The notes under the pieces are model-generated. The model searched no databases. It saw only the letters and a program-made list of their open reading frames with translations, and was not told the origin of the DNA. From the NCBI GenBank assembly GCA_029858565.1, contig JAOUEV010000006.1:1-64000 (forward strand): 64,000 nt of DNA, written 5' to 3'. Origin of the DNA: Nitrospirota bacterium (GTDB lineage Bacteria > Nitrospirota > UBA9217). Positions 44,503 through 63,172 of this stretch are shown one piece after another; position 1 is the first letter of the stretch, and the number at the start of each line of letters is the position of its first letter. A program made the position numbers and the translations under genes.

Positions 44503-46116
44503 ATGATAAAACGACTTCCGTCTCTATATGGATTTCTCATCGCCCTGGGGCTCTTGCTGCAGGGTCAGCCGGCGTTCGCCCAGCCCGCACAGAACGGCAT
44601 GGGCATCATTTCGGTGCCCCTTGCCAATGTCCGTTCAGAGCCGGAGCCGAAAGCCCCCATCGTGACCCAGGTGCTGCTAGCCGATGAGGTGCGCATCCTG
44701 GAAAAGCTCGATTACCGGTACCGCATCGCCATCCCCAATCAAGGGGACCGTGAGGGCTGGATCCATCAGGAGGCGGTCCTCCTCCCCCGCGACAACGGCA
44801 AGACGTTCTTTGCCTCCGACCGCCAGCGGATCGTGATCGCTGCGCCGAAAACTCCGGCCCTGATCATTGACCGCACCGGGAACCATGTCATCTCTCTTTA
44901 TGCCGGGACCAGGCTGCCGGTGGCTGCAAAGACCGCGGAAGGCTACAAGGTCCAGTTCCCCGATCACACGCTCGCCATCATCCCCGAGGCAGACGTCATG
45001 CCGGTGAAGCCGCGGAATCCGGTCTTTGAGGACATCGCGCCTGCGGAGATCGCCAGGACCGCGCAGAAGTTCAAGGGCGTCCGCTACCTGAGCGGCGGCA
45101 TAACTGCCCAGGGTATTGACACCCGCGGCCTGATCTACACGGTCTACCGCGTCCACGGGATCGATCTCACCATGGATCCCGACGCACTGCGGTCAAAGCT
45201 TACCCGCGTGCCCAAGAAGGAACTCGAGCCCGGCGATGTTCTTGCCTTTTACGGCGAAGGTCTCGGCTTGTATGTCGCCAACGGGCAGTTCCTGCACGTT
45301 CCGCGCAAGACCACGGTCCAGACCGGAGGCGTGCACGACCGGCGCTATGCCAAGGCGCTCCAGTTCGGATTGCGCGTGCTCGGCCCGGACCCGGCGCAGA
45401 AAAAACTGCCAGCGGAAATGACCGCCGACGAGATCCTGGTCGCCCAGTCCTATGCAGCAGGGATGCCGCTTCCCCGGCGGATCGTGTTCTGGGCCGAACG
45501 GTTCATTGGGACTCCGTACGATCCGGACCCCCTCGGCCTCTATGTCCGGTCGAACCGCATTGTGACCGATGAGATGGCCGACTGCATGTACCTCACCTTC
45601 CGGGCTGTCGAGCTTGCCCGTTCCGCAACGCCCGGAGAGGCGGTCGAGCAGGCGCTGGACCTCCGGTTCCGCACAAAGGGAACGCTCCGCGACGGCATCG
45701 TGGAGAACTACAACGAGCGGTTCGACTACGGCGAGGACATGGTCTGGAGCGGCAAGTGGGGCAGGAATATCACCGCGGACCTCGGCGCGGTCAGGACCAT
45801 CCCCGGATCCCGGGGAAAAGAGACTGTGGACATGCTGCCCAAGGCAGCGCTCGCGACGCGGACGCTCCAGAAGCAGCTGCAGGACGGGGATGTCATCTAC
45901 TGGGTGAAGGACCCGAAGAAGCGCGTGGTCGAGGAGATCGTGGCGCATCTGTCCTTTGTCCATGTGAAGAACAATAAGGCGTACCTCATCCACGCCTCGG
46001 GCAGCAAGGACAGCGCGACCCGCAAGGGCGGCGGCGCGGTAAAGGAAGTTCCGTTCAGCGATTATGTGCGCGATATGAAGTTCGTGGGCGCTCTTGTGAC
46101 GCGGCTCGAACAGTAG
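44503..46116 (+). CDS. Secreted cell-wall hydrolase-like protein: SH3-like domains, degenerate NlpC/P60, DUF1460-like amidase domain
   Basis: Signal peptide; ANVRSEP..GWI; KGVRYLSGG..GIDTRGL..LEPGDVLAF; FIGTPY..ADCMY..LQDGDVI..H..LIHAS. Confidence 0.72.
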   Translation: MIKRLPSLYGFLIALGLLLQGQPAFAQPAQNGMGIISVPLANVRSEPEPKAPIVTQVLLADEVRILEKLDYRYRIAIPNQGDREGWIHQEAVLLPRDNGKTFFASDRQRIVIAAPKTPALIIDRTGNHVISLYAGTRLPVAAKTAEGYKVQFPDHTLAIIPEADVMPVKPRNPVFEDIAPAEIARTAQKFKGVRYLSGGITAQGIDTRGLIYTVYRVHGIDLTMDPDALRSKLTRVPKKELEPGDVLAFYGEGLGLYVANGQFLHVPRKTTVQTGGVHDRRYAKALQFGLRVLGPDPAQKKLPAEMTADEILVAQSYAAGMPLPRRIVFWAERFIGTPYDPDPLGLYVRSNRIVTDEMADCMYLTFRAVELARSATPGEAVEQALDLRFRTKGTLRDGIVENYNERFDYGEDMVWSGKWGRNITADLGAVRTIPGSRGKETVDMLPKAALATRTLQKQLQDGDVIYWVKDPKKRVVEEIVAHLSFVHVKNNKAYLIHASGSKDSATRKGGGAVKEVPFSDYVRDMKFVGALVTRLEQ

Positions 46117-46330: not shown

Positions 46331-47863
46331 ATGCTTGCCAAGGTGATGAGCGCGGCCGTGCTCGGAATCGACGCCTATTCCGTGGAGGTGGAGGTCGATA
46401 TCGCCAGCCGCGGTCTGCCGTTCTTTTCCACGGTCGGCCTGCCCGATGCTGCGGTCAAGGAAAGCAAGGAGCGGGTGCGCGCGGCGCTCAAGAACACGGG
46501 ATTCGACTTCCCCCTGAAGCAGGTGGTGGTCAATCTCGCGCCTGCTGACATCAAGAAAGAAGGGTCTGCCTTTGACCTGCCCATTGCCGTTGCCATGCTG
46601 ATCGGCGAGGGCGTGCTTACCCAGGAAATGGTCGATGGCTACATCATCACCGGCGAGCTTGCCCTGGACGGAAGGGTGAAGTCCGTGCGGGGAGCCTTGT
46701 CCATGGCAGTGCTGGGCAAGCGGTCCAACTGCCGCGGCATGATCCTTCCGCAGGAGAATGCGGCCGAGGCAGCGGTCGTGGACCCGGTCAAGGTCTACGG
46801 TGTGAGAACGCTCCCCGAGGTCGTTGAGTTCCTAGGCGGCAAAGCGGCACTGGAGCACCTGCGGATCGATGTACAGAACGCTTTCGAGACCTTCTCGCTC
46901 TATCAGGAGGATTTCTCCGAGGTGCGCGGACAGGAGCATGCAAAGCGCGCCATCGAGATCGCCGCCGCCGGCGGCCACAACATCATCATGATCGGCCCTC
47001 CGGGGTCAGGCAAGACCATGCTCGCGCGTCGTCTTCCGTCGGTGCTTCCGCGGATGAGCTTTGACGAATCCATCGAGACCACCAAGATCCACAGCATCAT
47101 GGGATTGCTCAAGCAGGGCCAGCCTTTGATCGCAACAAGACCGTTCCGCAGCCCTCATCATACAATTTCCGACGCCGGCCTGATCGGCGGAGGCCAGGTC
47201 CCGAAGCCCGGCGAGGTCAGCCTGTCCCATAATGGGGTGCTTTTCCTGGACGAGTTGCCGGAGTTCAAGCGCAATGTGCTTGAAGCGCTCCGTCAGCCGC
47301 TCGAAGACGGCCAGGTGACCATCTCCCGCGCTTTAACCTCGCTCACCTATCCCGCGTCGCTCATGCTCGTGGCTGCCATGAACCCCTGTAAGTGCCAGGG
47401 CCGGGGCGATCCACAACGGCCTTGCACCTGCACGCCGAACCAGATCAGGCAGTATCAGTCGAAGATCTCCGGTCCGCTCCTGGACAGGATCGATATACAC
47501 GTCGAGGTTCCTGCAGTGAAGTTCAACGAGATATCATCGGATAAAGCAGCTGAACCATCGATTGCGATCAGGGATCGTGTTGTCAAAGCTCGAACAATCC
47601 AGTATGAGCGGTTCATTAATGATGGGATCTATTCCAACGCGCAGATGAAACCGAGACATATCCGTAAATACTGCAAGATCGACGATGACTCGCTGCGGCT
47701 CATGGAAATGGCCATGAACCGGCTGGGACTTTCCGCGCGGGCATACAGCCGCATCCTGAAGGTGTCACGAACGATCGCGGATATCGAGTGCAGCGATAAA
47801 ATAGCTTCCCATCACATCTCAGAAGCGATCCAGTATCGGAGCTTGGATAGAAAAGCGGTCTGA
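46331..47863 (+). CDS. comM: ComM/YifB Mg-chelatase-like AAA+ ATPase, full length, probably chimeric at the NPC codons
   Basis: VGLPDAAVKESKERV, GPPGSGKT, RPFRSPHH, LFLDELPEF, MNPCKC, SGPLLDRID, LSARAY. Confidence 0.95.
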   Translation: MLAKVMSAAVLGIDAYSVEVEVDIASRGLPFFSTVGLPDAAVKESKERVRAALKNTGFDFPLKQVVVNLAPADIKKEGSAFDLPIAVAMLIGEGVLTQEMVDGYIITGELALDGRVKSVRGALSMAVLGKRSNCRGMILPQENAAEAAVVDPVKVYGVRTLPEVVEFLGGKAALEHLRIDVQNAFETFSLYQEDFSEVRGQEHAKRAIEIAAAGGHNIIMIGPPGSGKTMLARRLPSVLPRMSFDESIETTKIHSIMGLLKQGQPLIATRPFRSPHHTISDAGLIGGGQVPKPGEVSLSHNGVLFLDELPEFKRNVLEALRQPLEDGQVTISRALTSLTYPASLMLVAAMNPCKCQGRGDPQRPCTCTPNQIRQYQSKISGPLLDRIDIHVEVPAVKFNEISSDKAAEPSIAIRDRVVKARTIQYERFINDGIYSNAQMKPRHIRKYCKIDDDSLRLMEMAMNRLGLSARAYSRILKVSRTIADIECSDKIASHHISEAIQYRSLDRKAV

Positions 47864-47948
47864 TTTCAAAAGGACTTTTCCAGATTTCTCACACAAGATA
47901 TTTCCGATAAAAAAATAACTGTAATAATAATTTATTTGCACATTTCTG

Positions 47949-47977
47949 TTGACAAGGGATTGCGATTTCACTATAAT
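47949..47977 (+). promoter_or_regulatory. Consensus sigma70 promoter upstream of the RHS gene
   Basis: Exact TTGACA-N17-TATAAT. Confidence 0.85.
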
Positions 47978-48114
47978 CGCAGCCAATTTACCCCTCGTTG
48001 TCGCACTTCACTATAAAAAGTAATTGAGAGTCCTTTCAACGACGCTGTCGATGCAGCATGCACGCATTCGTCGTGATATTGAGACCTATTGTCACTTGAT
48101 CATAGGAGAATGGC

Positions 48115-51100
48115 ATGTTTTTTCTAAACCGTTGGAGCATACTTAAAGCAGTTTTGCATGCAGTGATTTTGACAGTTATGACTGTTAGCACTGTTTTTGC
48201 TGTCGAGTCTGGCCAGACTGCTCCAAAAAAATCATCTGGATTGGGTGGCGAGGGCAGTGGTGGCTCCGGGTCTGTAGTGCCTGATCTCTCAACGGGGTCA
48301 TTTTCCTATTCCATTCCGATTGAAGTGCCTGCCGGTCGTAAAGGCATGAATCCCAATTTATCCCTAATTTATAATAGTACAAACGGCAGGAGCTGGGTCG
48401 GTTACGGATGGGAGTTAGAAAGTGGAGCTATCGAACGGAATAATAAAAGTGGCGTCGATTATAGTAAGGAAGACTATATATTACGCATGGGCGGAGCGAC
48501 GAGTGAGCTTATTAAAATAGAGACCAACGAGCTCGGCCAACCCGTAACAAATGAATTTCGAGTGAAAATTGAAGGGGCCTTTTTCCTCATAAAAAAGGTT
48601 GCCGCAACGAACTCATGGGAGCTCATTGACAAGAAAGGGGTCCACTATTACTTTGGCCAAACAACGCTTTCACGGCTGGATAACCCAGCAAATGCCAATG
48701 AAATATTCAAGTGGTGTCTCGATCGAGTCGAAGATACAAACGGTAATTACATGACGTTATCTTATAATAAAACGTATCTTCAAATTCCCTGGGCTTTGCC
48801 GGACGATGCACAATTATACTTGAAAGAAATCGCGTATGCTGGCAATACAAATACGGGTTTACTACCAACAGTCAATGTCAAGTTCTATACGGAGCTCAAT
48901 TACGACAAGACCGACAGCGGTTCTTCAAACTTTCGGGTACGAACTGCTTATAGACTAAAATCGATCGATATTAGTGCAAACGGGAACCGCGTGCGCGCCT
49001 ATCGTCTCCGGTACGATGTCGATCCGGGCGCAACCGGGAATCAGAATAGTCCTAGTAGCGGACGCTATTTGCTTACGAGCGTGGAACAGTATGGAAGCGA
49101 CGCGGACGTCTCCCCCACCACCGGCGATGTAACCGGAAGTTCTTTGCCCGCCACGACATTTTCTTACCCTCTTAACACGAACGGCTTTTCTGTGCAGGAA
49201 TGGACAGGAATGCCGAATTGGGGTGACGCAGCATATACATGGGTAGGCGATTTCGATGGCGATGGTATGATGGACATTGCAACAGCAACAGCGAACGGTA
49301 CAGCTATTTGGATTAAACACTCTCAAGGCATGACGAGCAGCCAATATTTTGTTGAAGAACAATGGGCATCCGGTTTGAATACCATAGGGCCATCGAATTT
49401 TACCTGGGCAGGCGATTTTGACGGAGATGGAAAGACCGATATTGCAACTATCGTTAACGGTATTGTTCGAGTCAGACTGTCAAGACCCGATAATCCACTT
49501 GGTAGCAGATTTGTAGAACAACCGTGGTCAACCACAATTACTACCTATTACGGTGGAATGACTTGGGCAGGCGATTTTAACGGCGATGGGAAAACCGACA
49601 TAGCATATGGCGTGCCGGGGAGCGGTAGCTGGAATATTTGGGTCCTCGCATCGAACGGCGCTGGGTTCGATTCACCGCAGGTTTGGCAAAGTAATTCGGT
49701 AAATTGGGGCACAACGTTGCTCGGCGACTTTAACGGTGATGGGAAAACCGATATCGCGACGTATGCAGGTGGAACGATTTGGTTAAAAGTCGCGCGGCCG
49801 GATCTGCCTTCGGGGCAGAGATTTCCAGAAACGGCAACAACTAATGTCCCTAGTTGGGGCCAAAGTGTCTGGGTGGGCGACTTCAATGGCGATGGTCGGA
49901 TGGATATTGCGACAGGAACAATAAATGGTTTGTTCGGTGGACCCGGCACGTTATGGGTAAAAATATCCACAGGAAATTATTTCATCGAACAACTATGGTG
50001 GTCCGGAACTTATACACCCTTAATAATTCCTAATTCAGAATGGATAGGCGATTTTAATGGGGATGGGAGAACTGATATAGCCTCATTGTACAGCAATTCT
50101 CAAATCAGTATTAAACAATCAACCGGATTTAGTTTTACTGAACAGTTGTACACGGTAAGCGGTCTTTGGAGCGATGGCGGATATAACTGGGCAGGCGATT
50201 TCAATGGTGACGGCAAGGACGATTTAGCAACCGGATGGTATGGATCGATCTGGATCAGAAAGGCAAATGTTTTTCAAGTGGATCGGCTGACCTCGATCAA
50301 AGATAGTATGGGAAGCACCACTACCATTCAGTACGATTGTTCTACCGATTTTCGCTGGAACAATACATTGATGCCTTTTCCTGTCCAGACAGTCAGCGAG
50401 ATCAGAGTCAACGACGGCAACGGAGTTGAGTCATCAACTTTATATACATACCTTGGTGCCTACTACCACATCGGTGATAGAGATTTTCGGGGTTTCAACC
50501 AAACACAGGTTGTCGGGCCACACGGACCAAACGGAGAAAATGCAACGACAATTACATGGTTTCACCAAGGCAGGGATACAGGTGTTGATGAGAATCATCC
50601 AGAAGTGTCGAATGGTTATATGAAAGGTCGGCCTTATCGAACTAAGGTAGTAGGCAATCATAATAAAACATATTCTGAATCGACAATTACCTATGCTCCC
50701 GACGATTCTGCACCTTACTTTAACCCAGCTTCAGAGGTAATTTCATATATTTGCGATGGCGATGAGTGTGGTCTTGATTCAAAGAAGACTCTCGCATTCG
50801 ATCGATTTGGTAACCTGCAGGAGGAGCGTGTATATGGTTCAGCCAGTGCTCAATCACCGGAGCGAAGGGTCGTACATACTTATGCCGAGAACAGCTCATC
50901 GGATAAGTGGATCGTGAGTCTACCTCTGACTGTGGAGCTTTATGATCAGAACAACGCCCTTATGGCAAAAAAGCGGATCTATTATGATGGGGTGGGAGGT
51001 TGCACGCAGTCTGCCGGTCTTGCGACGCCGGAAAAAGGAAATGTCACGCGTATTGTCAATGAACATATAGATCCTCTTCCGCAACTACAACCCGTTATTG

Positions 51101-54100
51101 GTGATATAGAAATCGGTATGGGCTATTATGCTGACGGAAATACCGCATGCATGCGTGACGCGCGTGGAAGTATAGTCTCAATCGCCGAAACAGATTACGA
51201 CACTTCCCGTACATTCCTGCTAAAAAAGAGAAATGCCCTGGGCCATGAGACAGCCACGAAGTATTACGGAGTTGATCAGGAACCTACAGACAATGGTTTA
51301 TATGGTCAGGTTAAGAGCATTACCGGTCCGAACGGTGCGGCAGAGATAGTAAATTCCCAATATGATAGTTTCGGGCGTCGCATTAGAGTTGACCTGCCTG
51401 ATGGTACCTGGCAGACGTGGCAGTACAACAATATCGGTTCTATCGGGACCCAGCATATTCAAACAACGAATAGCGCGGGATTGAGTGCTTGGACATATTT
51501 TGACGGACTCGGACGGACTTTCCTGCAAAAGCAGGTAGGCCCGGATGGAAAAACTATCGCTCAAAATACAGAATATAACAATACAGGAACGGTGAAACGT
51601 TCATCTTTGCCCTATTATTACGGCTTGGAAAGCGTCCGTTATGTGAACTTTGTTTATGACTCCATAGGACGAGTCATACAAAAAAACAATCCAGACGCCA
51701 CAACGGAATATGCATGCTATGACGATGGTGTTATCACTTCGATCGATGCAGAAGGAAAGAGAAAACGCGAAATTCGCAATGCCTTCGGGCAGTTAATCAA
51801 AGTCGAGGAGTACATTGGAACGGGAACTTCCTGCACGCTCAACGCTTCGGACGTATATGCCACGACAACTTACACCTATGATGCAGCGGGCAATCTTCGT
51901 TTTGTAACAGATGCTGAAAACCACGTAATGGAAATGCGTTATGATTCGCTGGGTCGCAAATTTTATATGAAAGATCCAGACATGGGTGAATGGTACTACA
52001 AGCACGATGAAAATGGAAATCTCAAGCGACAAAAAGACGCGAATCTTGCGGTAATAACGTTCGACTATGATAATATCAACAGGCTATCTCTAAAAACTTA
52101 TCCGGATGCAAAAACGGTCCAGTACGTTTACGACGATCCATCTGCTGCTTATTCAAAAGGCCGTTTGACATCAATGGTCGACGAGTCAGGCGTAACGAGC
52201 TATTCTTATGATATTGTAGGCCGTGTCGTAACTGTGAAAAAACGAATAGACGGGCAGGATTACACTGTAACGACTGGCTATTCGAGTGGTCGCTTGTCTA
52301 GCATATCCTATCCCGATCCACAAGGGACTGACCCATTAACGGTGAATCATTCTTACGACGGCGGTGGAAATCTACACCAGCTATCGAGCAGCGCACAGAC
52401 ATTTCTGACTCTCACTGGATACAATGCCCTGGCTCAGCCTGGAACTGCGACCATGGGTAATGGAGCAGCGACAGTTTATCAATATTACCAGACGAACAAT
52501 CGTCTTCAGAGAATTACGACGACCGGTGCATCTCAGACGCATCTGGATATTACGTATGACTATTATGACGCAGGTAATGTCAAGGAAATCAAGGATCAGC
52601 GCGATAATGCACGCTCGCAATGGTTTATTTACGACGATCTGAACAGGCTAGTCGAGGCGCAGAGTACACTTTATGGCGCTTTATTCTTTAGCTATAACCA
52701 AACTGGCAATATCCTTTCGAAACCAGTAGAACCATTGGCTGGGAATGGTGGGGCTCTCCCGAGCGGCGCAACGCCTACCTGTCCAACCGGCACTGCGCTC
52801 AATGGTGCAACCGGTCGCTGTGAAGCAGTGCCGCAATGCAATTCAGGAACGTATAGCTCTTCCCAAAATATATGTATGTCGGAAAGTTTGAGCGAACCAT
52901 CCTGTCTTGCGGGGAGTCAACTTGATATAACAAGGGATCAGTGCATTGCTGCTGCTACTGTTACTACAACCTATTCTGATCCCAGTTGTCCCACGTATTC
53001 CCGGATGTACAGTCAGTTTCCTAGGGTTGATCCAACAACCGACCAGTGCAGTTATTACTCGACCTCAGGATGTAGCTCAAGCATGTGTACAGGCCAAGGT
53101 TTGACATTTACGGGTTGTAAAATCATACCTGCCATTGGTTACCGTACGACATGTCTTGGGCCAGCGCCATCTTGTTCCGTCGGTACCTATGACGCCTTCC
53201 GTAATGCATGTGCGTTAACCACAATATCTTGCCCGGCAGGACTTGCTTATAACTCATCAACGCAGGATTGTGTTGCAGCACCTGTATGCGCCAGCGGAAC
53301 TTACGATCTTTCCCGGAATAAATGCGTCTCAAGCTCCACCGCTGCTGCAACTTGCCCAGCAGGAACAACGCTGAATGGCATTTCGGATAAATGTGAAGCG
53401 ATGCCGACTTGTTCAGCGGGTTCTTATGACGCGGGTCAGAACACATGCGTTTACAATATCGTGCCTGCTACAACATATACATACGACGGGACTGCACATG
53501 CGCTAACCTCTACGTCAGATGGTCGCGTCTATCAACACGATTCGAATGGGAACATGTGGTCAGATGGTCTGCGAACGATAAACTACAATTACGATAACTT
53601 ACCGATATCAATAACTTATAGTGGTATAACGACTACGCTTGTTTATGACGGAAACGGTGATCGGGTCAAAAAAATTACGCCGTCCGGTACGACAATTTAC
53701 ATAGGAAAACTTGCTGAGTGCATAAACGGCGAGTGCACAAAGTACATTTTTGCGGGAGGGACGCGGATTGCCGCAAAGTTTTACAATGATATCAATTACT
53801 ATCATCAGGACCATCTCGGTAGTACCCGGGTCGTAACTGATGGAAGCGGAAACAGTGCCGAGGGCATCCAATACTATCCTTTCGGTGCCACGCTAAGCGA
53901 CACAGGTAGCAACTTCAATCACAGATACACATCTCAGGAATATGATAGGGAAACCGGGCTATATTATTACAACGCGAGGTACTATAACCCGACGCTGGGA
54001 AGGTTCATTAGTCCGGATTCAATTGTTCCTGATCCGGCCAATCCCCAGGCTTTGAACCGATACAGTTACGTCATCAACAATCCGGTAAACTATACAGATC

Positions 54101-54975
54101 CAAGCGGACATGCGTTCTGGAAGCGAATGAACAATTGGTCGAAAAAACCATGGGTTGCTTTTGCGTTACAGATGATTCCTGGTGCCATTGCTCCTGGAGT
54201 CGCAGAATTCGCCACATATCAACTGACGAAATCAAAGAGAGGTCGGCAAATACTAATCGCAGAAGCTGTCATAGCAACAATTGCGGTGTCTTGTGGGGCT
54301 ACTGCGGAGGCGTCAGCGGCAGGTGCGTCAGAAGGAGGGATGGCAACAGCAGACACTTCGCAAATATTTGAAGTATACCCATACGATTTCATCGCACCAA
54401 ATTCTGCCAATGGTGGTTCAGTCATCAGCGGTACGGGTAGTACTGGTAGCGCTGGTGCGGCATCTTATGGATCTTCGGAAGAAATTGCAAGGCAGTCTCT
54501 TGCCGCGATAAAATATGGCGGCACTGCATATATTTCCTATCAAGGCATCAGTGCCGTGGGTGGAGCAATTGGCACGCCACGCAGTGGAGGGGACCACGGC
54601 GGCTCCAATGGTGGCGGACAAAATGGGTATAAAAGTGGATATTGGGATGTAAATACATCCGGCGGATTTATCATTGGGTATACTCATGGATGGCTATTTA
54701 CTGGAAGTAATCATTATGTCTATTCTGGTGGTGGACTTGTGACGCCGGGATATGGTGGTTCCATTACTTGGTCATCATCTGCTCCAACTCCTGGGTGGAA
54801 TGCAGCACTGCAAGTTCAATTTGGTATTGCTATTCAAGTAGGTTATGGGTTTGGTCCTAGTGGTGGCTGGTTTGGGGAGGTTGGTGGAGGGTGGCCCCCA
54901 GGCGCATCATTGACCGGTTACTTCGTTTTTGAAGGCAGACGCAATAATTTACCAAAATTATTGCCATCACATTAA
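48115..54975 (+). CDS. RHS/YD-repeat polymorphic toxin: signal peptide, SpvB-like N-terminus, 7 FG-GAP/VCBS-type repeats, YD repeats, Cys-rich insertion, RHS core, C-terminal putative toxin
   Basis: TGSFSYSIPIEVPAGRKG, GDFxGDG x7, YDxxGR repeats, HQDHLGS, YNARYYNPTLGRFISPD, NNPVNYTDPSG. Confidence 0.92.
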   Translation: MFFLNRWSILKAVLHAVILTVMTVSTVFAVESGQTAPKKSSGLGGEGSGGSGSVVPDLSTGSFSYSIPIEVPAGRKGMNPNLSLIYNSTNGRSWVGYGWELESGAIERNNKSGVDYSKEDYILRMGGATSELIKIETNELGQPVTNEFRVKIEGAFFLIKKVAATNSWELIDKKGVHYYFGQTTLSRLDNPANANEIFKWCLDRVEDTNGNYMTLSYNKTYLQIPWALPDDAQLYLKEIAYAGNTNTGLLPTVNVKFYTELNYDKTDSGSSNFRVRTAYRLKSIDISANGNRVRAYRLRYDVDPGATGNQNSPSSGRYLLTSVEQYGSDADVSPTTGDVTGSSLPATTFSYPLNTNGFSVQEWTGMPNWGDAAYTWVGDFDGDGMMDIATATANGTAIWIKHSQGMTSSQYFVEEQWASGLNTIGPSNFTWAGDFDGDGKTDIATIVNGIVRVRLSRPDNPLGSRFVEQPWSTTITTYYGGMTWAGDFNGDGKTDIAYGVPGSGSWNIWVLASNGAGFDSPQVWQSNSVNWGTTLLGDFNGDGKTDIATYAGGTIWLKVARPDLPSGQRFPETATTNVPSWGQSVWVGDFNGDGRMDIATGTINGLFGGPGTLWVKISTGNYFIEQLWWSGTYTPLIIPNSEWIGDFNGDGRTDIASLYSNSQISIKQSTGFSFTEQLYTVSGLWSDGGYNWAGDFNGDGKDDLATGWYGSIWIRKANVFQVDRLTSIKDSMGSTTTIQYDCSTDFRWNNTLMPFPVQTVSEIRVNDGNGVESSTLYTYLGAYYHIGDRDFRGFNQTQVVGPHGPNGENATTITWFHQGRDTGVDENHPEVSNGYMKGRPYRTKVVGNHNKTYSESTITYAPDDSAPYFNPASEVISYICDGDECGLDSKKTLAFDRFGNLQEERVYGSASAQSPERRVVHTYAENSSSDKWIVSLPLTVELYDQNNALMAKKRIYYDGVGGCTQSAGLATPEKGNVTRIVNEHIDPLPQLQPVIGDIEIGMGYYADGNTACMRDARGSIVSIAETDYDTSRTFLLKKRNALGHETATKYYGVDQEPTDNGLYGQVKSITGPNGAAEIVNSQYDSFGRRIRVDLPDGTWQTWQYNNIGSIGTQHIQTTNSAGLSAWTYFDGLGRTFLQKQVGPDGKTIAQNTEYNNTGTVKRSSLPYYYGLESVRYVNFVYDSIGRVIQKNNPDATTEYACYDDGVITSIDAEGKRKREIRNAFGQLIKVEEYIGTGTSCTLNASDVYATTTYTYDAAGNLRFVTDAENHVMEMRYDSLGRKFYMKDPDMGEWYYKHDENGNLKRQKDANLAVITFDYDNINRLSLKTYPDAKTVQYVYDDPSAAYSKGRLTSMVDESGVTSYSYDIVGRVVTVKKRIDGQDYTVTTGYSSGRLSSISYPDPQGTDPLTVNHSYDGGGNLHQLSSSAQTFLTLTGYNALAQPGTATMGNGAATVYQYYQTNNRLQRITTTGASQTHLDITYDYYDAGNVKEIKDQRDNARSQWFIYDDLNRLVEAQSTLYGALFFSYNQTGNILSKPVEPLAGNGGALPSGATPTCPTGTALNGATGRCEAVPQCNSGTYSSSQNICMSESLSEPSCLAGSQLDITRDQCIAAATVTTTYSDPSCPTYSRMYSQFPRVDPTTDQCSYYSTSGCSSSMCTGQGLTFTGCKIIPAIGYRTTCLGPAPSCSVGTYDAFRNACALTTISCPAGLAYNSSTQDCVAAPVCASGTYDLSRNKCVSSSTAAATCPAGTTLNGISDKCEAMPTCSAGSYDAGQNTCVYNIVPATTYTYDGTAHALTSTSDGRVYQHDSNGNMWSDGLRTINYNYDNLPISITYSGITTTLVYDGNGDRVKKITPSGTTIYIGKLAECINGECTKYIFAGGTRIAAKFYNDINYYHQDHLGSTRVVTDGSGNSAEGIQYYPFGATLSDTGSNFNHRYTSQEYDRETGLYYYNARYYNPTLGRFISPDSIVPDPANPQALNRYSYVINNPVNYTDPSGHAFWKRMNNWSKKPWVAFALQMIPGAIAPGVAEFATYQLTKSKRGRQILIAEAVIATIAVSCGATAEASAAGASEGGMATADTSQIFEVYPYDFIAPNSANGGSVISGTGSTGSAGAASYGSSEEIARQSLAAIKYGGTAYISYQGISAVGGAIGTPRSGGDHGGSNGGGQNGYKSGYWDVNTSGGFIIGYTHGWLFTGSNHYVYSGGGLVTPGYGGSITWSSSAPTPGWNAALQVQFGIAIQVGYGFGPSGGWFGEVGGGWPPGASLTGYFVFEGRRNNLPKLLPSH

Positions 54976-54999
54976 TAGACTCTATTAAGGCGGATAACA

Positions 55000-55224
55000 A
55001 TGAATGAAATTGCATTTGGAGTCATGGGCTTATTTATAGGGTTTCTCCTAATTTATTTCAATAAGCAATTTGCTCGTTTGCTTGTTGAACAGCAGAATAA
55101 GTTTTGGGGGTTCCATTTTGATCATAGAGAAATAATGATTTCAAGAATTGGCGCGTTTATTGCTGGTGCCGGTTTTGTTATAGCAGGATTATTAATGGTA
55201 TTTAAGATAATACATTTTAAATAA
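55000..55224 (+). CDS. Small 2-TM membrane protein, candidate cognate immunity protein
   Basis: Starts 24 nt after the RHS stop, AT-rich, two hydrophobic helices. Confidence 0.6.
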   Translation: MNEIAFGVMGLFIGFLLIYFNKQFARLLVEQQNKFWGFHFDHREIMISRIGAFIAGAGFVIAGLLMVFKIIHFK

Positions 55225-55235
55225 ATAGGGTCAAT

Positions 55236-55260
55236 TGAACTGACCCCCTCCGTTTAGACA
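55236..55260 (+). mobile_element. Possible solitary IS3-family-like terminal inverted repeat
   Basis: TGAACTGACCCCCTCCGTTTAGACA, followed by an orphan AAGGAGG and no transposase. Confidence 0.35.
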
Positions 55261-55352
55261 ATAACACAAAGCGAGTTATTGAAGGAGGCTCTCAAGCTAA
55301 TGAATTCGTAGTGCCCCGTGCTCCACAGGCTGGTTCCAACTAGCGATGAAAA

Positions 55353-55721
55353 ATGAAACCACCATTATTCGTGATTGAAGGTTTTGATATTAGTGCTTAT
55401 GCTTCGCTTGAAAAGCTTGAGAACCACCTGGAGCCATTCTTTGTGAAGGAAGTAAATTATAAGGCATATGATTCTGAAGGAAGACTCTTGACTCTATCAG
55501 TGAAGGTCGAGCGCAAGCCATTTTTTTTTGGATTGTTTAAGGCAGAACGAAAGTGTGTTGTCATGCAGTCGGTTGAGTTAGAACCCAAATATCAAAAAGA
55601 TCTACATGATGCGCTTGTAAATAATTTAGCCTATACAACTGAAGAGAATAAATCAACGTACCAAGAAATGTCACTAAGTAAATTGATCGATATATTTGTG
55701 AAAATTAATGGCTTAACTTGA
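55353..55721 (+). CDS. Hypothetical protein, candidate orphan immunity protein
   Basis: AT-rich 122-aa ORF downstream of the RHS locus; YKAYDSEGRLL. Confidence 0.6.
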   Translation: MKPPLFVIEGFDISAYASLEKLENHLEPFFVKEVNYKAYDSEGRLLTLSVKVERKPFFFGLFKAERKCVVMQSVELEPKYQKDLHDALVNNLAYTTEENKSTYQEMSLSKLIDIFVKINGLT

Positions 55722-55842
55722 AATCGGGAGTTTAACAGTAGCTGACTGAATCATCTAAACATGCCTACTGAACCAAGGTTAACGTTAACCCAATAATTTG
55801 ATATTTGAGTACTTGATCAGAATTGTAAATTCGCGCATGAAC

Positions 55843-56298
55843 TCAATAAATATTTTTCAAATTATGCTGTAGAAATTGATTGATGCTTCGAATGTTCCGC
55901 TTGCACGGCCGCATGCCACGGCTTATCCAATCCAGCAGCTGCTCCGGATCCCGCCCCATAACAGCCCCCAGCCGCTCAAAGGATAGCCCGTTTACCATCT
56001 TAAAGTACCTGAGCCTGCCGAGGGTGTCTTCCGGGCAGGGGAATGGGACATATCCCAGAAATCGTATGATAGCCGGCATATGTCGGATCTCAGGTTCTGT
56101 ACCCCGTTCCCAGTTATAGACCGAGGCTTCGGATACCCCTATTTGCTCGGCAGCCTGTCTTTGGAATAATCCTAAATCTATTCGTCGCTTACGGAGATGC
56201 TCGCCAATGGATTTCGGGTTGCTCGGGTAGCCGGGTCGTGCTACAATCGGCCGTGGTAAAGAATAACTATAAACCGGCCACTCTAAAAAGCTGAACAA
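55843..56298 (-). CDS. XRE-family protein with two HTH-like units; start uncertain
   Basis: IGEHLRKRRIDLGLFQRQAAEQIGVSEASVYNWERG; second unit LGRLRYFKMVNGLSFERLG. Confidence 0.8.
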   Translation of the reverse strand: MFSFLEWPVYSYSLPRPIVARPGYPSNPKSIGEHLRKRRIDLGLFQRQAAEQIGVSEASVYNWERGTEPEIRHMPAIIRFLGYVPFPCPEDTLGRLRYFKMVNGLSFERLGAVMGRDPEQLLDWISRGMRPCKRNIRSINQFLQHNLKNIY

Positions 56299-56780
56299 AC
56301 CCCTGCAAGTGCGGTTTTCACAGCGATCCCCTGCATCAGTGTCTCTGCACGCCCCACCAGGTCCAGACCTACCGGTCCCGCGTATCCGGCCCTCTCATGG
56401 ACCGGATCGATATTCATATCGAGGTGCCGGCGGTCAAGTTCCGCGAGATCGCAGATGATACTCCGACTGAACCGTCTGTTCATATCCGTGAACGTGTGAC
56501 CCAGGCAAGAGAGATCCAGCAGGAGCGTTTCCGGAGTGACGGCATCTACGCCAACGCGCAGATGAAGCCGCGGCACCTCAGGAAGTATTGCAAGATCGGC
56601 GAAGATTCCCAGCGACTTATGGAAGCTGCAATGAGCAAAATGGGCCTCTCCGCCCGCGCGTACAACCGCATCCTCAAAGTCAGCCGCACCATCGCGGACC
56701 TGGACGCCAGCGAGAGTATTGCTACTCATCATATTTCTGAGGCGATTCAGTATCGGAGTTTGGATAGAAGAACGGTCTGA
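56298..56780 (+). pseudogene. comM: Second comM 3' half beginning at NPCKC
   Basis: NPCKCGFHSDP..SGPLMDRIDIH..LSARAYNRILKVSRTIAD..EAIQYRSLDR; in-frame TGA at 56292, no 5' portion. Confidence 0.9.
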
Positions 56781-56855
56781 TTTTAAAAGGACTTTTCAGA
56801 TTTCTCAGAAAAAAAGCTTGCCTGATAAAAACAAACTGCAATATTCGTATTTTTC

Positions 56856-56884
56856 TTGCAACGAAGTTCAATTTACACTACTAT
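56856..56884 (+). promoter_or_regulatory. Putative sigma70 promoter at a position equivalent to the one at 47949
   Basis: TTGCAA-N17-TACTAT after the second comM tail. Confidence 0.5.
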
Positions 56885-57033: not shown

Positions 57034-60000
57034 ATGAAAAAAAAGCGAATAGTTATTGTGGAAGATGAAGCGCTGATTGCAATGGAATTGGAACGCCAGC
57101 TGGCCGGGCTTGGATACGAGGTGTGTGGTTCTGCAGTGACGGCAGATGGCGCAATAGGGCTCGTGGAAGCACGAGATCCTGATCTTGTTCTAATGGATAT
57201 TCGCCTCCGGGGCGAAGGGGACGGAATCGAAGCAGCTGCGGAAATACGCAGGCGGTTCGATATTCCCGTGATATTCCTGACGGCCTATGCCGATGACGGC
57301 ACTATCTTTCGGGTACGGCAGGCCGCTCCTTTCGGATATATCCTAAAGCCCTATCGAGAAGAAGATCTGCGTCTGGCTATTGAAGTAGCCCTGGTCAAAC
57401 ATGACGGAGAACGGCAACTTCGGGCTCAGAATGAATCCCTGGAAGCCAGGGTGCGGGAACGCACCGCTGAACTCGGCCGTGCTGTCGATGCACTGAAAGG
57501 GGAAATCGCGGAGCGGACACAGGCGGTCGAGCGTCTTCGGAAGAGCGAAGAGCGGTATCGTTTTCTTTTTGAGGCTATCCCGATAGCCGTGGGGATGGCC
57601 TCGCTCGACGGACAGGCGCTTTTGGCGAACAAAGCGTCGTTGGATCTCTACGGGATGTCCCGGGAAGACCAGCAAGGGATGAATCTTCGGGACCTCTATG
57701 CGAATTCCGCGGAGCGAAGTGAATTGATGCGGCAGCTCCAGGAATCAGGCCGTGTGCGTGACCGCGAAGTGTCCCTGCAGCGAATGGATGGGGCAGGGAT
57801 CACTGTTTTGCTGAACATGGACATCGTGGAAATGGACGGCCAGAAGGTGATCCTGACCACGCAACGCGACATCACCGAGCGCAGGAAGGCGGAGACGGCG
57901 CTGCGGGAGCGGGTGAAGGAACTGACCTGTCAGTACGCGGTCCGGCTCGATATGCAGAAGGATTTGTCTGCTGACGAGTTTTGCACGCGGGTCGTTAACC
58001 ACGTAGTCGCGGCCATGCAATTTCCGGAACTCTGCGCAGCGGAGCTCGAATTGGAGGGGCAGAGGTGTTTTGCCGGGCATCGCGCGGAACGGCAGTCACG
58101 CGAGTTGTATGGGGACATCAAGTCCGGGGACAAGGTCATCGGGCGATTGCGGGTTTGGTGCGTTGATGACAGGCCTTTTATGATGCCTGAAGAGCAGCAC
58201 CTGATCAGCGCCGTAGCTGACATGGTCCGCCAGTGGCATGCATTCCAGAAGGCGCAAAAGGAGATTGAACACCTGGCCAGTTTTCCGACGCTCAATCCGA
58301 ATCCCGTGCTTGAGATCGACGAGACAGGTCAGGTGGTGTTCCGCAATAACGCTGCTGCCGAAATCCTCGCACAGGCCGGCTCGGCCGACCACCGGCTGTT
58401 CTTCCCGCAGGATATGCAGTCGCTCCTGGCTTCCCTGCCCAGGGAGCCGGTATGCCGGGAAGTCGCTTTTGGCGGACGCGTATTCCAGGAAACGATCCAT
58501 GCGCTTCCCGAGTTGAACACCCTGCGCATTTACGCGGCTGATATCACCGAGCTCAAGCTGCTCGACGAAGCGCTCGCCAGGAGCAAGCGGGAGTTTGAAT
58601 CCATATTTGCCTCGATGAACGATGCCGCGATCTTCGCGGACAGCAGGCGCCGGATCGTCAGGATGAACCGGGCCGCGGAAGAGATGTTCGGCTGGAGGCA
58701 TGAGGAGCTGGAGGGAAAAACCACGGAGTGCCTCTATGCGGAGCGGTCCGACTATGACGCGCTCGGCAGGAGTCGTTACAATGTCGCGGCCCGGCGCGAT
58801 CGCGCTTTTTTCGAGATGCGCTACCGGCGAAAGGATGGGAGCGTTTTTCCGGCCGAATCTTTCGGCACGCAGGTGCCGGACGCGGACGGCGGAGTCATGG
58901 GCTTTCTGGGCATTCATCGCGATATCACGGCCCGCAAGGAGGCGGAAGAACAGCTGGCTCGTTACCAGGCGGAGCTCGAGGAAATGGTGAAGTCGCGTAC
59001 CCGGGAACTGCAGGATACCGTCACACGGCTGCAGGAGGAGATCTCTCGTCGGGAAATAGTGAGCCGTGACCTCAATCGAAACAAGCTGTTTCTGACGAAT
59101 ATCCTGAACAGCATCCAGGACGGCATCTGCGTGTTCGACCGGGAACGGCGGATCATGCTCGTGAATAACACGATAGCGAAGTGGATTCCCGGGGTCGGTA
59201 GCCTGGGGTTCCGGACGCATACCTGTGCGGAGCTGTTCCACAGTTTCGGCCGCTGCGACGTGTGCGCCGCGGACTACTCAGAGGAATTCAGCGGAAAACG
59301 GAGCTTGATATTCGCGAGCGGCGACGAGAACGAGAAAAAATGGTTCGAGGTGCATACCTTTCCCCTGATAACGAACGACGACAAGCACGTCGGGCGGGTG
59401 GAATATTTCCGCGACATTACAGCGGCAAAAGACCTGGAGAGTAAGATTGCCGGTTACCAGGAGCAGCTGCGAGCCTTGAATTACGAAATGGCGGACGTCG
59501 TCAACCGGGAACAGCGCAGGATCGCTCAGGAACTGCACGATACCATCCCCCAGACGCTGCTGTTTTGCAGGATGCGGCTGGAGAGGATAGAAAAGCGCGA
59601 CACAGCCGAAGGCCGGCGTTCCGGGCAGTCCTCCGATTTCCGGGAGATCTACCAGTTCCTGGATGACGCCATCGAACAATCGCGCAACCTGATGTTTAAA
59701 CTTGCCCCTCCCATGCTGTACGAACTGGGACTGGAGCCTGCGCTTCAGAGCCTTTTGGACCAGTTCGGCAGGGAACACCCTATAGCCTTCCGGTTCAAGG
59801 GAAGAGAGCTGAAAGCTCCCTTGCAAGGGGATGGCGCCGCCATGGTGTATGGTATGGTCCGTGAACTCCTGGTAAACTGCGTCAAACATTCTGAAGCAAC
59901 GCATGTCGAGGTGGCCGTCAATCGCAGGGACGGCGGTCTTGTCGTCGCGGTCCGGGACAACGGCAAGGGCCGGGAAGCGGGGGCGCAGGCCGGAAATACC

Positions 60001-60132
60001 GAAAAGGGATTTGGGCTGTTCAGCATCCGGGAACGCGTGCGGTATCTGGACGGTGACTTCACGATCGACACCGCTCCCGGCAAAGGTTTCTGCGCGACCA
60101 TCAGGATCGCGCTGGAGAAACTGAGGAAGTGA
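57034..60132 (+). CDS. Cytoplasmic multi-sensor kinase: REC, several PAS, GAF-like segment, HisKA_3, HATPase
   Basis: IVEDE..LMDIRL; repeated RDITERR/ADITE/RDITARK; RIAQELHD; ELLVNCVKHS; DNGKG; GFGLFSIRER. Confidence 0.9.
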   Translation: MKKKRIVIVEDEALIAMELERQLAGLGYEVCGSAVTADGAIGLVEARDPDLVLMDIRLRGEGDGIEAAAEIRRRFDIPVIFLTAYADDGTIFRVRQAAPFGYILKPYREEDLRLAIEVALVKHDGERQLRAQNESLEARVRERTAELGRAVDALKGEIAERTQAVERLRKSEERYRFLFEAIPIAVGMASLDGQALLANKASLDLYGMSREDQQGMNLRDLYANSAERSELMRQLQESGRVRDREVSLQRMDGAGITVLLNMDIVEMDGQKVILTTQRDITERRKAETALRERVKELTCQYAVRLDMQKDLSADEFCTRVVNHVVAAMQFPELCAAELELEGQRCFAGHRAERQSRELYGDIKSGDKVIGRLRVWCVDDRPFMMPEEQHLISAVADMVRQWHAFQKAQKEIEHLASFPTLNPNPVLEIDETGQVVFRNNAAAEILAQAGSADHRLFFPQDMQSLLASLPREPVCREVAFGGRVFQETIHALPELNTLRIYAADITELKLLDEALARSKREFESIFASMNDAAIFADSRRRIVRMNRAAEEMFGWRHEELEGKTTECLYAERSDYDALGRSRYNVAARRDRAFFEMRYRRKDGSVFPAESFGTQVPDADGGVMGFLGIHRDITARKEAEEQLARYQAELEEMVKSRTRELQDTVTRLQEEISRREIVSRDLNRNKLFLTNILNSIQDGICVFDRERRIMLVNNTIAKWIPGVGSLGFRTHTCAELFHSFGRCDVCAADYSEEFSGKRSLIFASGDENEKKWFEVHTFPLITNDDKHVGRVEYFRDITAAKDLESKIAGYQEQLRALNYEMADVVNREQRRIAQELHDTIPQTLLFCRMRLERIEKRDTAEGRRSGQSSDFREIYQFLDDAIEQSRNLMFKLAPPMLYELGLEPALQSLLDQFGREHPIAFRFKGRELKAPLQGDGAAMVYGMVRELLVNCVKHSEATHVEVAVNRRDGGLVVAVRDNGKGREAGAQAGNTEKGFGLFSIRERVRYLDGDFTIDTAPGKGFCATIRIALEKLRK

Positions 60133-60162
60133 TATAATTCACAGTGCGGAGGTAGGGTTGCC

Positions 60163-60813
60163 ATGATCGATCTTGTTATCGCCGATGACCATGCCATCTT
60201 CCGATACGGACTCAGGGCCTTGTTGTCCGATGAGCCGGATTTTCGGATCCTGTCCGAAGCGGACAATGGAACGGCCGCGCTGGGTGAGATACGGGAGAAA
60301 AATCCCCAGATCGCCGTTTTGGATGTCTCCATGCCCGGCAAGAACGGCGTCGAAGTGCTCGCGGAGGTCTGTCGCGATAAATTGAAGACCCGGTGCATCC
60401 TCCTGACGGTCCACAACAATCCGGTGCTCGCCGCTACCGCGATCCGGAACGGAGCGGCAGGCTACCTGCTCAAGAACCAGACGTTTCGTGAGCTGCCCGA
60501 CGCGCTCAGGGTCGTGGCAGCAGGAAAGAAATACTATTCCGCGGAATTGATACAGGCCCTGGCGCGCCAAAAAGAGCATCTCAATCTCGCCCGGCAGCTC
60601 ACCCGGCGTGAGTATGAAGTCCTGGCGCTGATAGTTAAGGGGATGACAAACAACGAGATCGCGACGCAGCTCAAAATCAGCATCCGCACCGCGGAAACCC
60701 ACAAGAGCCGTATCATGAATAAACTGGACATTCACACATCGGTAGCTCTGATTGCCTATGCGTTCCAGCATAAGCTGGTGAATGACAGCCAGGATATGCC
60801 GTCGTCCGAATAG
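60163..60813 (+). CDS. NarL/LuxR-family response regulator
   Basis: IADDHAIFR, LDVSMP, LTRREYEVL..NNEIATQLKISIRTAETH. Confidence 0.94.
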   Translation: MIDLVIADDHAIFRYGLRALLSDEPDFRILSEADNGTAALGEIREKNPQIAVLDVSMPGKNGVEVLAEVCRDKLKTRCILLTVHNNPVLAATAIRNGAAGYLLKNQTFRELPDALRVVAAGKKYYSAELIQALARQKEHLNLARQLTRREYEVLALIVKGMTNNEIATQLKISIRTAETHKSRIMNKLDIHTSVALIAYAFQHKLVNDSQDMPSSE

Positions 60814-61564
60814 CTGATGCTGCGATTGAATATGCGGCCCGCGCCGGGCCATGGCTGAAGATATTTCTCCGCATTCCCCCTCCCGACCTTCTATTCCGAT
60901 TAACCGCCTGCCTGCCCGGACCGTATGGCCGAGATGCGCTGATCCCGGTGTAAATTCATTTCAACGAATATTTGCCGCGTGCCATCCGAAGAAAAACAGG
61001 CAGTGTGCCGCTGGACTCGCCCAATGGCCTGCCGAACCGCTGCTATCCAAAAACAGCAGCGGTGATATTTTTGCGCGGTAAATGCAGAGATCTGAGGCCG
61101 TTCTCCAACTAGCTGCAATAACTTATTAAGACAATTCATGACTTACTGAAAAACCCCGGGAAGGGGCGCGCAAATCAGCCGGTGCGCCGGCGTTCCGTAT
61201 TTGCTGAGTGTGGGTGCCGGGCCGCGGTTTGAACGCAGCGGCCCCGGATTCATCGCACCTTGTCCTTCGCATCTTTTCATAAGTGGAAGATCTGTGAGCC
61301 CCTGCCGCAAACCAAGGAGGAAGCGGAGGTATGGGAAAAGTTCAAGCCTGCCTGGGAAGCATGGAAAATTTATCACCGAAGAACGTCGCTCTTGCCGAAG
61401 GCGGCAAAAAGGACGAAGGCTACGTTATTTTACTGATAAGACATACGGAACGAAGCCGATGCGGATGAGTGATATTTCTGATACGGTAACCCCATGACCA
61501 TGAGTGTTGCGGGACAAAGCGATGCGAACAGGAAGCTCAGCCGCGCAGGCGCCAAGAAACGAAC

Positions 61565-61909
61565 ATGAGAAAACTGAACTGTTGGGAATTCAAAAAATGC
61601 GGCCGGGGGCCCAGTGAAGCGAGAGCGGGGCAGGTCCTCTGTCCGGCGGCGTCCATGGCGGCGCTGAACGGCGTGCACGGCGGGATGCAGGGTGGGCGGT
61701 CCTGCTGGATCGTCGAGGGGACGCTGTGCAGCGGCAAAAAGAGCAGGCCGTTCAAGGAGAGATTCCATTCCTGTTCGTATTGCGACTTCTACCGGATGGT
61801 GATGCAGGAGGAGGGCGCCGCATTTGTCCTGTCGTCCGTCCTGCGCAGCCGGGTGGAGATAAGAACTGACGCCGAGCAGGACAAGTATTCCATGCGCATT
61901 GCAGCATGA
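61565..61909 (+). CDS. Two-CW-domain Cys-rich small protein
   Basis: KLNCWEFKKCGR..CPA..GGRSCWIVEGTLC..CSYCDFY. Confidence 0.8.
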   Translation: MRKLNCWEFKKCGRGPSEARAGQVLCPAASMAALNGVHGGMQGGRSCWIVEGTLCSGKKSRPFKERFHSCSYCDFYRMVMQEEGAAFVLSSVLRSRVEIRTDAEQDKYSMRIAA

Positions 61910-61935
61910 TCGAATTCCTGAAGAGGAGGCAAGCC

Positions 61936-62457: not shown

Positions 62458-62766
62458 AAAAGAACGCGCGCCGCCGCGGAGCCTAAACGGTGAATGGCCG
62501 GGTCTATCATTCAATTATCATCATTCACACCTGGCACCTCAACGCCCGGTTTTCCGGAGGCCCTCGGCGGCGCGCATGGACCGAGAACAAAAGCATCGAG
62601 GAGGGCTGCGATGATCAGATTGCAGGGAAGCCGGGCCGTTGACAGGCAGTTCCACAAGGACAGATATATACCGGTCAGGCGGCTGGCAACCTGGATGCAG
62701 GCCGCGCCTGCCGACACGCGCCCGGCGGGAAGGAGAAACCGCATACCCTGGAGCGAGGTAGTAAGA

Positions 62767-63162: not shown

Positions 63163-63172
63163 GGAGGGATCA

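Follow-up and report, generated by a model that had tools for sequence, protein, structure and literature searches.

A displaced comM tail in a Nitrospirota genome is probably the scar of a prophage beside a repaired gene

The 3′ part of the comM gene occurs twice in a 64,000-nucleotide (nt) stretch of DNA from a Nitrospirota bacterium (contig JAOUEV010000006.1, positions 1 to 64,000), referred to here as the window. One copy, tail 1, completes the full-length gene. The other, tail 2, stands alone. A preliminary description took both for tandem units of attachment (att) core, comM tail, promoter and variable cargo, stacked on an integron-like platform. We favour a different history. A prophage with a large serine recombinase (LSR) probably inserted into comM and then decayed. 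The gene was afterwards repaired, and the mosaic comM now stands in front of an RHS cassette, within an ordinary variable hotspot. Features of the locus are listed in Table 1.

The full-length comM gene (46331–47863, forward strand) encodes a YifB family protein of 510 amino acids (aa). The protein matches TIGR00368, the ComM/YifB family model, along its entire length (640 bits; cut-off 362) and is predicted to act as a helicase. Searching the whole genome gave two comM matches, the full-length gene and the lone tail; a 5′ half without its tail was not found. Tail 2 spans the last 160 comM codons. Its reading frame is still open and an in-frame stop lies just upstream. No third tail was found between tail 2 and the RNase J gene (tblastn, E ≤ 10; blastn, word size 7). 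The coding parts of the two tails are ~68% identical and, as the preliminary description had noted, homology continues past both stop codons (47864–47926 and 56781–56843). It extends for 63 nt, with BLASTN ending at exactly 47926 and 56843. The first 63 nt after the stops give a local alignment score of 58, compared with 14.6 ± 2.5 for shuffled sequences (0 of 500 reach 58). Similarly, the 19-mer GATTTYAAAAGGACTTTTC at the stop codon has exactly two copies in the window, and at least two matches occur in 0 of 100 shuffles. These results confirm that two comM 3′ parts with a shared flank are real. Beyond +63, similarity is no better than in shuffled sequences, 205 of 500 of which reach the score. 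Hence, the repeated unit is a tail plus ~63 nt, and a promoter is not part of it.

Tail 2 starts abruptly at AACCCCTG, comM codon 351. Next to it is an XRE-type helix-turn-helix (HTH) gene, 64–71% identical to copies in three genomes of the same family (G049, G063 and G066). A search with tail 2 as the query, covering the 64 genomes of the family, revealed further displaced tails. An HTH homolog lies beside a displaced comM tail, on the opposite strand, in G049, G063, G066 and G060, the G060 copy being degenerate. In total, 5 of the 64 genomes have the homolog, the window's own included, and it is never away from a displaced tail. The G063 genome still has the prophage. There, comM ends at approximately residue 352 and abuts a gene for a 507-aa LSR (Resolvase, Recombinase and Zn_ribbon_recom domains; phrog_95 integrase). 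Genes for a cI/LexA-like repressor, phage replication protein O and a VRR-NUC nuclease follow. A neighbouring contig reads Gp157, DUF5131, Dam methylase and GmrSD, then the HTH gene, comM residues 351–508 and RNase J. The attL and attR of G063 share ACCCCTG precisely at the window's junction, and in G063 the end of the recombinase gene comes after the AACCCCTG core. The same AACCCCTG/ACCCCTG position is found at all junctions listed, which come from independent genomes. Furthermore, the window has a 60-nt phage arm with homologs in G049 and in three metagenome loci (L094, L133 and L101).

The arrangement is also seen in environmental DNA. Fifty-three metagenome loci have an HTH homolog and, for 40, enough upstream sequence is available to be informative. 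A comM tail beginning at tail residue 1–3 lies 36–71 nt from the HTH start in 25 of these 40, two of the 25 being contigs of G049 and G066. Of the remainder, two have a later-starting tail remnant and 13 have no tail. The expected marks of an LSR prophage attR were thus all found: a recombinase at the other junction (in G063), the same position and core, and a phage arm and gene in the window. Because the split point is the same in G063, and the HTH–tail arrangement recurs in relatives and metagenome loci, tail 2 and the HTH gene together are a fossil attR. This assignment, made by sequence comparison, is much firmer than any route proposed for the repair. A viral collection searched for free phage genomes with the HTH gene gave only three weak matches (32–43% identity). 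One metagenome contig (L132, 3003–4494) has comM residues 1–350 and then the HTH gene in the same direction, with HNH and TraG/TrwB-like genes next. This arrangement is opposite to that of attR and may reflect an element that is inverted or lies in the other orientation.

At the left junction of the window there is no phage arm; codon 350 is joined directly to tail 1. A restored comM with an HTH scar was found in six further loci (G049, G066, L103, L114, L136 and L139). These have a common anatomy of full comM, cargo, HTH gene or remnant, and old tail or remnant. Between the new tail and the HTH gene, the cargo is a 2513-aa teneurin/YD-type toxin and a 126-aa open reading frame (ORF) in G049, and a Gp49-type toxin–antitoxin pair in L103. 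It consists of MarR, Msr, Crp and Fic genes in L114, signalling genes in L136, and MNT-HEPN and HipBA in L139. In G066, unknown ORFs, DUF5131, a phosphoribosyltransferase and a third tail remnant occupy this position. The window, G049 and L114 have kept the old tail whole; in L103, G066, L136 and L139 it is truncated or lost. Such uneven decay of the scar fits fossils, not a maintained module. The two tails are 100% identical over ~445 nt in G049 and over ~375 nt in L103. Beyond ~445 nt, the G049 tails are diverged, and they are unrelated after the stop.

The assembly is sound at both critical junctions. When the source run was assembled independently, the junction of the 5′ part with tail 1 was crossed with 0 differences (47236–47712), and 47790–58500 lay in one contig. 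A joint of 47383 to 56301, as would result from excision of the island, was considered for a 151-nt contig of run X3. The contig is ~85% identical on the tail 2 side and was attributed to the intact comM of a related organism. A run X3 contig that matches tail 1 at 150 of 151 nt, and 205 identical nt of the RHS gene in run X2, are too short to give context.

The 5′ part of comM (residues 1–350) is 82–87% identical to 17 relatives. Tail 2 is nearer than tail 1 to all 17. Relatives compared with one another (190 pairs) are more alike in the 5′ part than in the tail, by 6.2 ± 2.9 identity points; for the window, the corresponding values are 7.8 with tail 2 and 14.3 with tail 1. Nucleotide identity between the window's comM and its relatives drops at the core itself, from 0.83 to 0.59, and a construct of the 5′ part with tail 2 holds at 0.76–0.83. 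At 81 columns that are invariant among 20 functional relatives, tail 1 has eight changes and tail 2 has three (leave-one-out range among the relatives 0–4). In a free tree, tail 1 sits on a long branch with G021, G060 (displaced tail), G019 and G066 (support 100/99) and tail 2 falls in another clade. We infer that tail 1 was probably imported, perhaps being a tail once displaced elsewhere, and that the 5′ part originally belonged with tail 2. GC content at third codon positions (GC3) was tried as a test of the native tail and was not decisive. Four of the eight tail 1 changes fall in approximately its first 30 codons (47381–47480), a Cys-rich segment after the att core. The changes after the core would alter the bacterial arm of the recombinase target.

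The two tails share a patch that is far younger than their bodies. Synonymous divergence (dS) is saturated over tail codons 1–150 (~2.0) and is 0.17 for the last 10 codons. The 63-nt flank is identical at 53 of 60 positions (Jukes–Cantor distance 0.13). Since the patch (0.13–0.17) is so much younger than the tail bodies (dS ~2), the repeat must have two histories. The breakpoint is in the ...ISEAIQYRSLDR block at the comM end, which is the most conserved DNA of the tail. The tails of G049 switch at the same ...ISEAIQYRSLDR place in the opposite sense, being identical before it and diverged after. We did not find the patch in the 3′ flanks of the 17 relatives, in any fetched comM locus, or in any of the 63 other genomes of the order. 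Scans for exact matches, which would miss diverged copies, gave 26 hits in genome contigs for a 19-mer of the flank, none with comM nearby, and 0 hits in metagenome contigs for a 24-mer. A search of Rfam with 46000–58000 returned nothing relevant; the single hit was inside comM and below threshold. A structured RNA or terminator in the shared flank was rejected, as the two copies fold no better than shuffled sequences (z = 1.10 and 0.12).

If the patch were a mobile attachment site, other genomes should have it too. The shared flank was in no other genome or metagenome contig searched, so it does not behave like such a site. A recombination site common to genomes at each cassette border, as in an integron platform, was likewise not found. 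As to an ordinary conserved comM 3′ untranslated region with invariant neighbours, the patch is absent from the flanks of the 17 relatives, and genes after comM vary among relatives. The most economical explanation is homologous recombination or gene conversion between the two copies, or between alleles, with a crossover in the conserved comM end. On the evidence above, the shared spacer is more plausibly a recombination leftover of the comM 3′ flank than an attachment site.

Promoters had also been assigned to the repeating unit. The TTGACA-N17-TATAAT site before the RHS gene is present as described and is the sole perfect match (12/12) to a sigma-70-type promoter in a scan of 46000–58000. 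The second proposed promoter, TTGCAA-N17-TACTAT, is likewise present in the sequence, but it matches at 8 of 12 positions, which is chance level and below the 9/12 threshold of the scan, and is therefore absent from the scan list. Both sites fall outside the homologous segment, beyond +63, where the alignment is at shuffle level. The promoter is thus not part of the repeat, and a common promoter expressing the cassettes, as in an integron platform, was not found. The G049 island (L078, ~4365–4470) has a near-consensus TTGACA, 17 nt, TATTAT between the comM stop and the YD-toxin gene; this site is not homologous to the window spacer.

GC content drops from ~0.61 to ~0.45 across roughly 47.5–56 kb. 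The low-GC stretch between the tails has four ORFs, encoding an RHS toxin, proteins of 74 and 122 aa, and the XRE-type HTH protein. The RHS protein contains SpvB, FG-GAP, TcdB_toxin_midN, RHS repeats and Rhs_assc_core (TIGR03696), and ends in a tip of ~287 aa without a family match. The GC3 of its gene is 0.43; that of the comM 5′ part is 0.79. At 49236–50231, a 48-nt unit occurs seven times in tandem, spaced at 147–171 nt, and corresponds to the FG-GAP repeats. The 74-aa ORF has no family match in Pfam, PHROGs or NCBIfam. The 122-aa ORF has none in the same three collections and no tblastn match in the fetched loci. Repeats, core domain, variable tip and small downstream gene together identify an RHS/YD-repeat polymorphic toxin cassette. 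A toxin role is predicted for the tip and an immunity role for the 74-aa protein, a possible candidate by its position. We regard tail 1 and this cassette, with fair assurance, as an 8.9-kb toxin island that made comM whole again. Pfam detects no recombinase domain in the ORFs between 47864 and 56298. Across 23 ORFs over 26.6–64 kb, the sole mobile-element enzyme is an IS200-like Y1 transposase at 30641–31591. An active integrative element, with its own recombinase plus attL and attR, is thus not present in the window.

Taken together, the course of events that we favour is as follows. An LSR phage integrated at AACCCCTG, comM codon 351, as the relatives show. Only the right end of the phage, consisting of the HTH gene and attR junction (55843–56305), was kept. 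This end still abuts what would be the original tail 2, the 3′ flank of tail 2 and the accessory genes before RNase J. The first 350 codons would then have been joined to tail 1, making comM whole, and the low-GC RHS cassette, with its own strong promoter-like site, may have arrived with tail 1 or later. Finally, recombination or gene conversion with a breakpoint in the ...ISEAIQYRSLDR end of comM would have made the tails mosaic. Cargo genes are predicted to use their own promoters.

Several observations weigh against this history. The G063-type recombinase occurs in one of the 64 family genomes, G063 itself, where the prophage ends sit on different contigs. Neither a donor nor an intermediate form was found; scans of public collections for exact patterns gave chance hits or nothing. 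The precise joining of tail 1 at the core is a proposed step. Import of tail 1 is unproven, since an approximately unbiased (AU) test does not reject a sister relationship of tails 1 and 2 (p = 0.149). Unexpectedly, the more deviant copy is the functional one, tail 1, and not the displaced one. Both tails also have a lower GC3 than the 5′ part (deficits of +0.14 and +0.10; 0.018 ± 0.048 in relatives); tail 2, too, may thus not be native in the strict sense.

Of the workable versions of the tandem-unit idea, the closest is a capture like that of bio by phage lambda. Here, an aberrant circle from a donor lysogen, carrying attR, tail, flank and cargo, would have recombined with a resident attL and rebuilt comM at the core. 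Recombination between two HTH copies would have deleted the resident prophage, units being stacked by phage enzymes supplied in trans. Such a capture would account for a discontinuity exactly at the core and a left junction without a phage arm. It also suits the HTH gene being the one phage gene kept in the window and in five of the six other restored loci (L139 has a fragment only), the resemblance of tail 1 to a formerly displaced, relaxed copy, and the host-like, variable cargo between new tail and HTH gene. We nevertheless consider it unlikely. Pairings of serine-integrase sites besides attP × attB need a phage-encoded factor (PMC3783163). The window's genome has no match to the G063-type recombinase (E ≤ 1e-5), no circle or intermediate was seen, and capture does not itself explain the young 3′ patch. 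There is accordingly only an outside chance that codon 351 is a phage-driven accretion point, at which aberrant excision and attL × attR joining between molecules deliver units of tail, flank and cargo. Just as doubtfully, each unit would repair comM and push older units, with their attR–HTH scars, toward RNase J. Replacement tails whose arm beside the core is altered, such as tail 1, might resist re-integration. A foreign tail is not needed if the gene's own tail and 63-nt flank were copied in place at repair, and tail 1 then diverged fast or had its body replaced. Identical tails in G049 (~445 nt) and L103 (~375 nt), confinement of the patch to this genome, and the AU test, which allows sister tails, all speak for duplication of this kind. 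It is quite unlikely here: a body dS of ~2 against 0.13–0.17 for the patch requires a second event anyway, a functional copy should not evolve faster, and the free tree places tail 1 in another clade (100/99).

The polarity could also be reversed, with tail 1 and the RHS gene resident, and the HTH gene, attR, tail 2, flank and kinase block imported from another scarred comM locus. The GC3 of tail 2 (0.68–0.69) does match that of the kinase (0.69) and LuxR-type gene (0.72), not that of the comM 5′ part (0.79), and the kinase has no ortholog in the family. However, it is tail 2 that has the identity expected of a partner for the 5′ part, tail 1 is discontinuous at the core, and the compositionally foreign part is the stretch from RHS to HTH. 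This makes the reversal decidedly improbable. A dedicated integron-like platform, with the patch as recombination site and a conserved promoter driving stacked cassettes, is very improbable. The two tandem units with different cargo, the stacked tails of relatives and the near-consensus promoter-like site after the G049 comM tail are compatible with it. Yet the unit has no integrase within it or next to it, none of the other loci and genomes searched contains the patch, the repeat does not include the promoter, the second site is at chance level, and tail duplications in relatives begin at differing codons (351, ~436 and ~466). The platform built on comM is therefore not supported. What endures of the tandem-unit proposal is that tail and flank are repeated before different cargo, and that the stacking of displaced tails is real. 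Its promoter is outside the repeat, its att core is the target of a phage LSR and its second tail an attR scar. The looser idea of accretion at comM, without dedicated machinery, is supported. Finally, a chimeric contig joining the comM genes of two strains would be conceivable in a metagenome-derived genome, and the comM region does fall in several short contigs with minor variants in the independent assembly. We judge this extremely improbable: independent contigs span 47236–47712 and 47790–58500 without differences, and the same anatomy is found in other genomes and contigs.

Table 1. Features of the comM locus, with window coordinates
Feature	Position	Strand	Basis or remark
NlpC/P60-SH3 cell-wall hydrolase gene, conserved upstream neighbour of comM	44503..46116	+	Pfam
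comM residues 1–350, left of the phage attachment point	46331..47380	+	Pfam ChlI, Mg_chelatase; TIGR00368
AACCCCTG core in uninterrupted comM (apparently rebuilt attB-like site, no phage arm)	47381..47388	+	junction table
Tail 1, comM residues 351–510, fused in frame to the gene	47381..47863	+	deviant, probably imported copy
Young patch, copy 1: last 10 comM codons and 63 nt of 3′ flank	47832..47926	+	dS, BLASTN end point
TTGACA-N17-TATAAT, sigma-70-type promoter-like site	47949..47977	+	12/12 match; 138 nt upstream of RHS start codon
RHS-type polymorphic toxin gene, 2286 aa	48115..54975	+	Pfam, NCBIfam
74-aa ORF directly 3′ of the toxin gene	55000..55224	+	GC3 0.28
122-aa ORF	55353..55721	+	ORF list
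XRE-type HTH gene, right-end gene of the comM-targeting prophage family	55843..56250	-	Pfam HTH_3
Fossil attR: phage arm and AACCCCTG core	56238..56305	+	junction comparison
Tail 2, displaced, free-standing comM residues 351–510	56298..56780	+	translation, Pfam
Young patch, copy 2	56749..56843	+	alignment, BLASTN, distance
TTGCAA-N17-TACTAT, weak promoter-like site	56856..56884	+	sequence read; 8/12 match
Accessory signalling cluster: REC-PAS-HisKA_3 kinase, LuxR-type regulator, CheW, REC protein	57034..64000	+	Pfam

The surroundings are those of a hotspot, with conserved flanks and variable content between comM and RNase J. The NlpC/P60 gene adjoins comM in 13 of 20 stretches scanned from relatives, and the gap between comM and RNase J varies from ~0.2 to 12.6 kb in 13 relatives. 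Here, RNase J lies beyond the window (contig positions 67964–69619), 11.2 kb after tail 2, and the signalling cluster fills the gap. The suggestion that this cluster, from 57 kb, is cargo is reasonable. No ortholog of the sensor kinase was found at E ≤ 1e-80 in the 63 other family genomes, with 12 candidates scored per genome. A paralog of the C-terminal half of the kinase (57% identical) occurs elsewhere in the genome (G000, contig C80, 75–1403). Genes after comM are not invariant in relatives, in agreement with the different cargo first described, and an array with more than two tails, as had been sought, exists in G066, which has three tail pieces. Shorter tail duplications start at other points, at approximately codon 436 in G021 (with a DUF2283 gene) and codon 466 in G016 (with MNT-HEPN), and tail remnants are also present in G066, G022, G075, L117 and L125. 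The comM 3′ third is hit repeatedly and in several ways.

Further observations concern relatives and the rest of the window. An MNT-HEPN pair lies directly after comM or a displaced tail in several genera, as seen in L033 (G016), L042 (G003), L078 (G049), L086 (G075) and L139 (a metagenome contig), and looks like an old resident of the hotspot. In genus g3, comM is apparently deleted save for its last 45–60 codons, which lie ~200 nt after NlpC/P60 (L085, from G022, 5156–7140). Full comM was not found in two g3 genomes (G005 and G022), and the tail 2 search of four g3 genomes gave only the G022 remnant. The gene is frameshifted or split into two frames in G014 (L049, 674–2198) and G070 (contig C7). 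G011 contig C376 was rejected as a second tail; its comM is 55% identical, at a contig end with FtsH-like neighbours. We treated it as the gene of another organism and excluded it from counts. In the window, a tRNA-Leu(GAG) gene (44294–44378) lies between a class IV aminotransferase gene and the NlpC/P60 gene. The IS200-like Y1 transposase (316 aa), which has a DnaA-C-like HTH, is followed by a HigB-like toxin gene (142 aa; 30641–32145 for the two). A 2398-aa surface-type protein (33261–40457) has 14 DUF5122 beta-propeller repeats, many Big_13/Big_6 domains, fn3 and a weak Por_Secre_tail match.

In the literature on comM as a prophage target, we found only the case of Wolbachia phage WO. According to PMC9203015, sr1WO uses an LSR to integrate into a magnesium chelatase gene, portions of which flank the prophage, much as a gene of the Mg-chelatase family is split here. 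HTH_XRE regulators, comparable to the HTH protein of the window, are a noted feature of that phage group (PMC9203015). The bacteria differ, and the likeness to what is described there is at the gene-family level. Unlike the prophage described there, that of the window is gone save for one gene, and its target has been rebuilt with a second tail.

Gene-splitting serine-integrase prophages form a related class, for example SPbeta in spsM (PMC5499854) and Listeria A118 (PMC3556126). The target of A118 is comK. In these systems, attB is inside a coding gene that is restored only when the element departs, and excision is precise, whereas here comM is whole while the attR scar persists. Hence, restoration came via an extra 3′ copy.

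Genomic islands in tRNA genes target the end of the gene and bring a replacement copy. Islands with dusA-specific integrases do likewise, and share with the window a direct repeat of part of the target gene, a gene left intact after insertion, and toxin or defence cargo (PMC4482086). Those islands have their own tyrosine integrase beside the repeat; the window has none, and its boundary is a serine-recombinase crossover point. The likeness to integrons is conceptual, in that cargo is stacked beside a fixed point with the newest unit nearest. However, there is no integrase here, no attC-like site common to units or genomes, and no common promoter, and the cargo units are multi-gene with what appear to be their own promoters. 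Hotspots between conserved core genes turn over by homologous recombination in their flanks. The comM locus resembles these in its conserved neighbours (NlpC/P60 with comM, and RNase J), its highly variable content and its mosaic flank gene, but differs in that its flank gene contains a phage attachment site, through which displaced gene tails join the hotspot. AbaR-type resistance islands are transposons in Acinetobacter comM and leave the gene interrupted. They too have comM as a recurrent insertion target, but no transposition genes accompany the insertion here.

These findings suggest that a gene can recover from a prophage split without excision; what stays behind is a scar that can be dated, consisting of attR, a single phage gene and the displaced tail. 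Many environmental genomes have this scar, which identifies codon 351 of comM as a target that serine recombinases use widely. Along with recombination in the conserved comM end, scars of this kind would feed a variable hotspot of toxins, toxin–antitoxin pairs and signalling genes. In annotation, a phage scar is a better reading of a second comM tail than a new cassette system.

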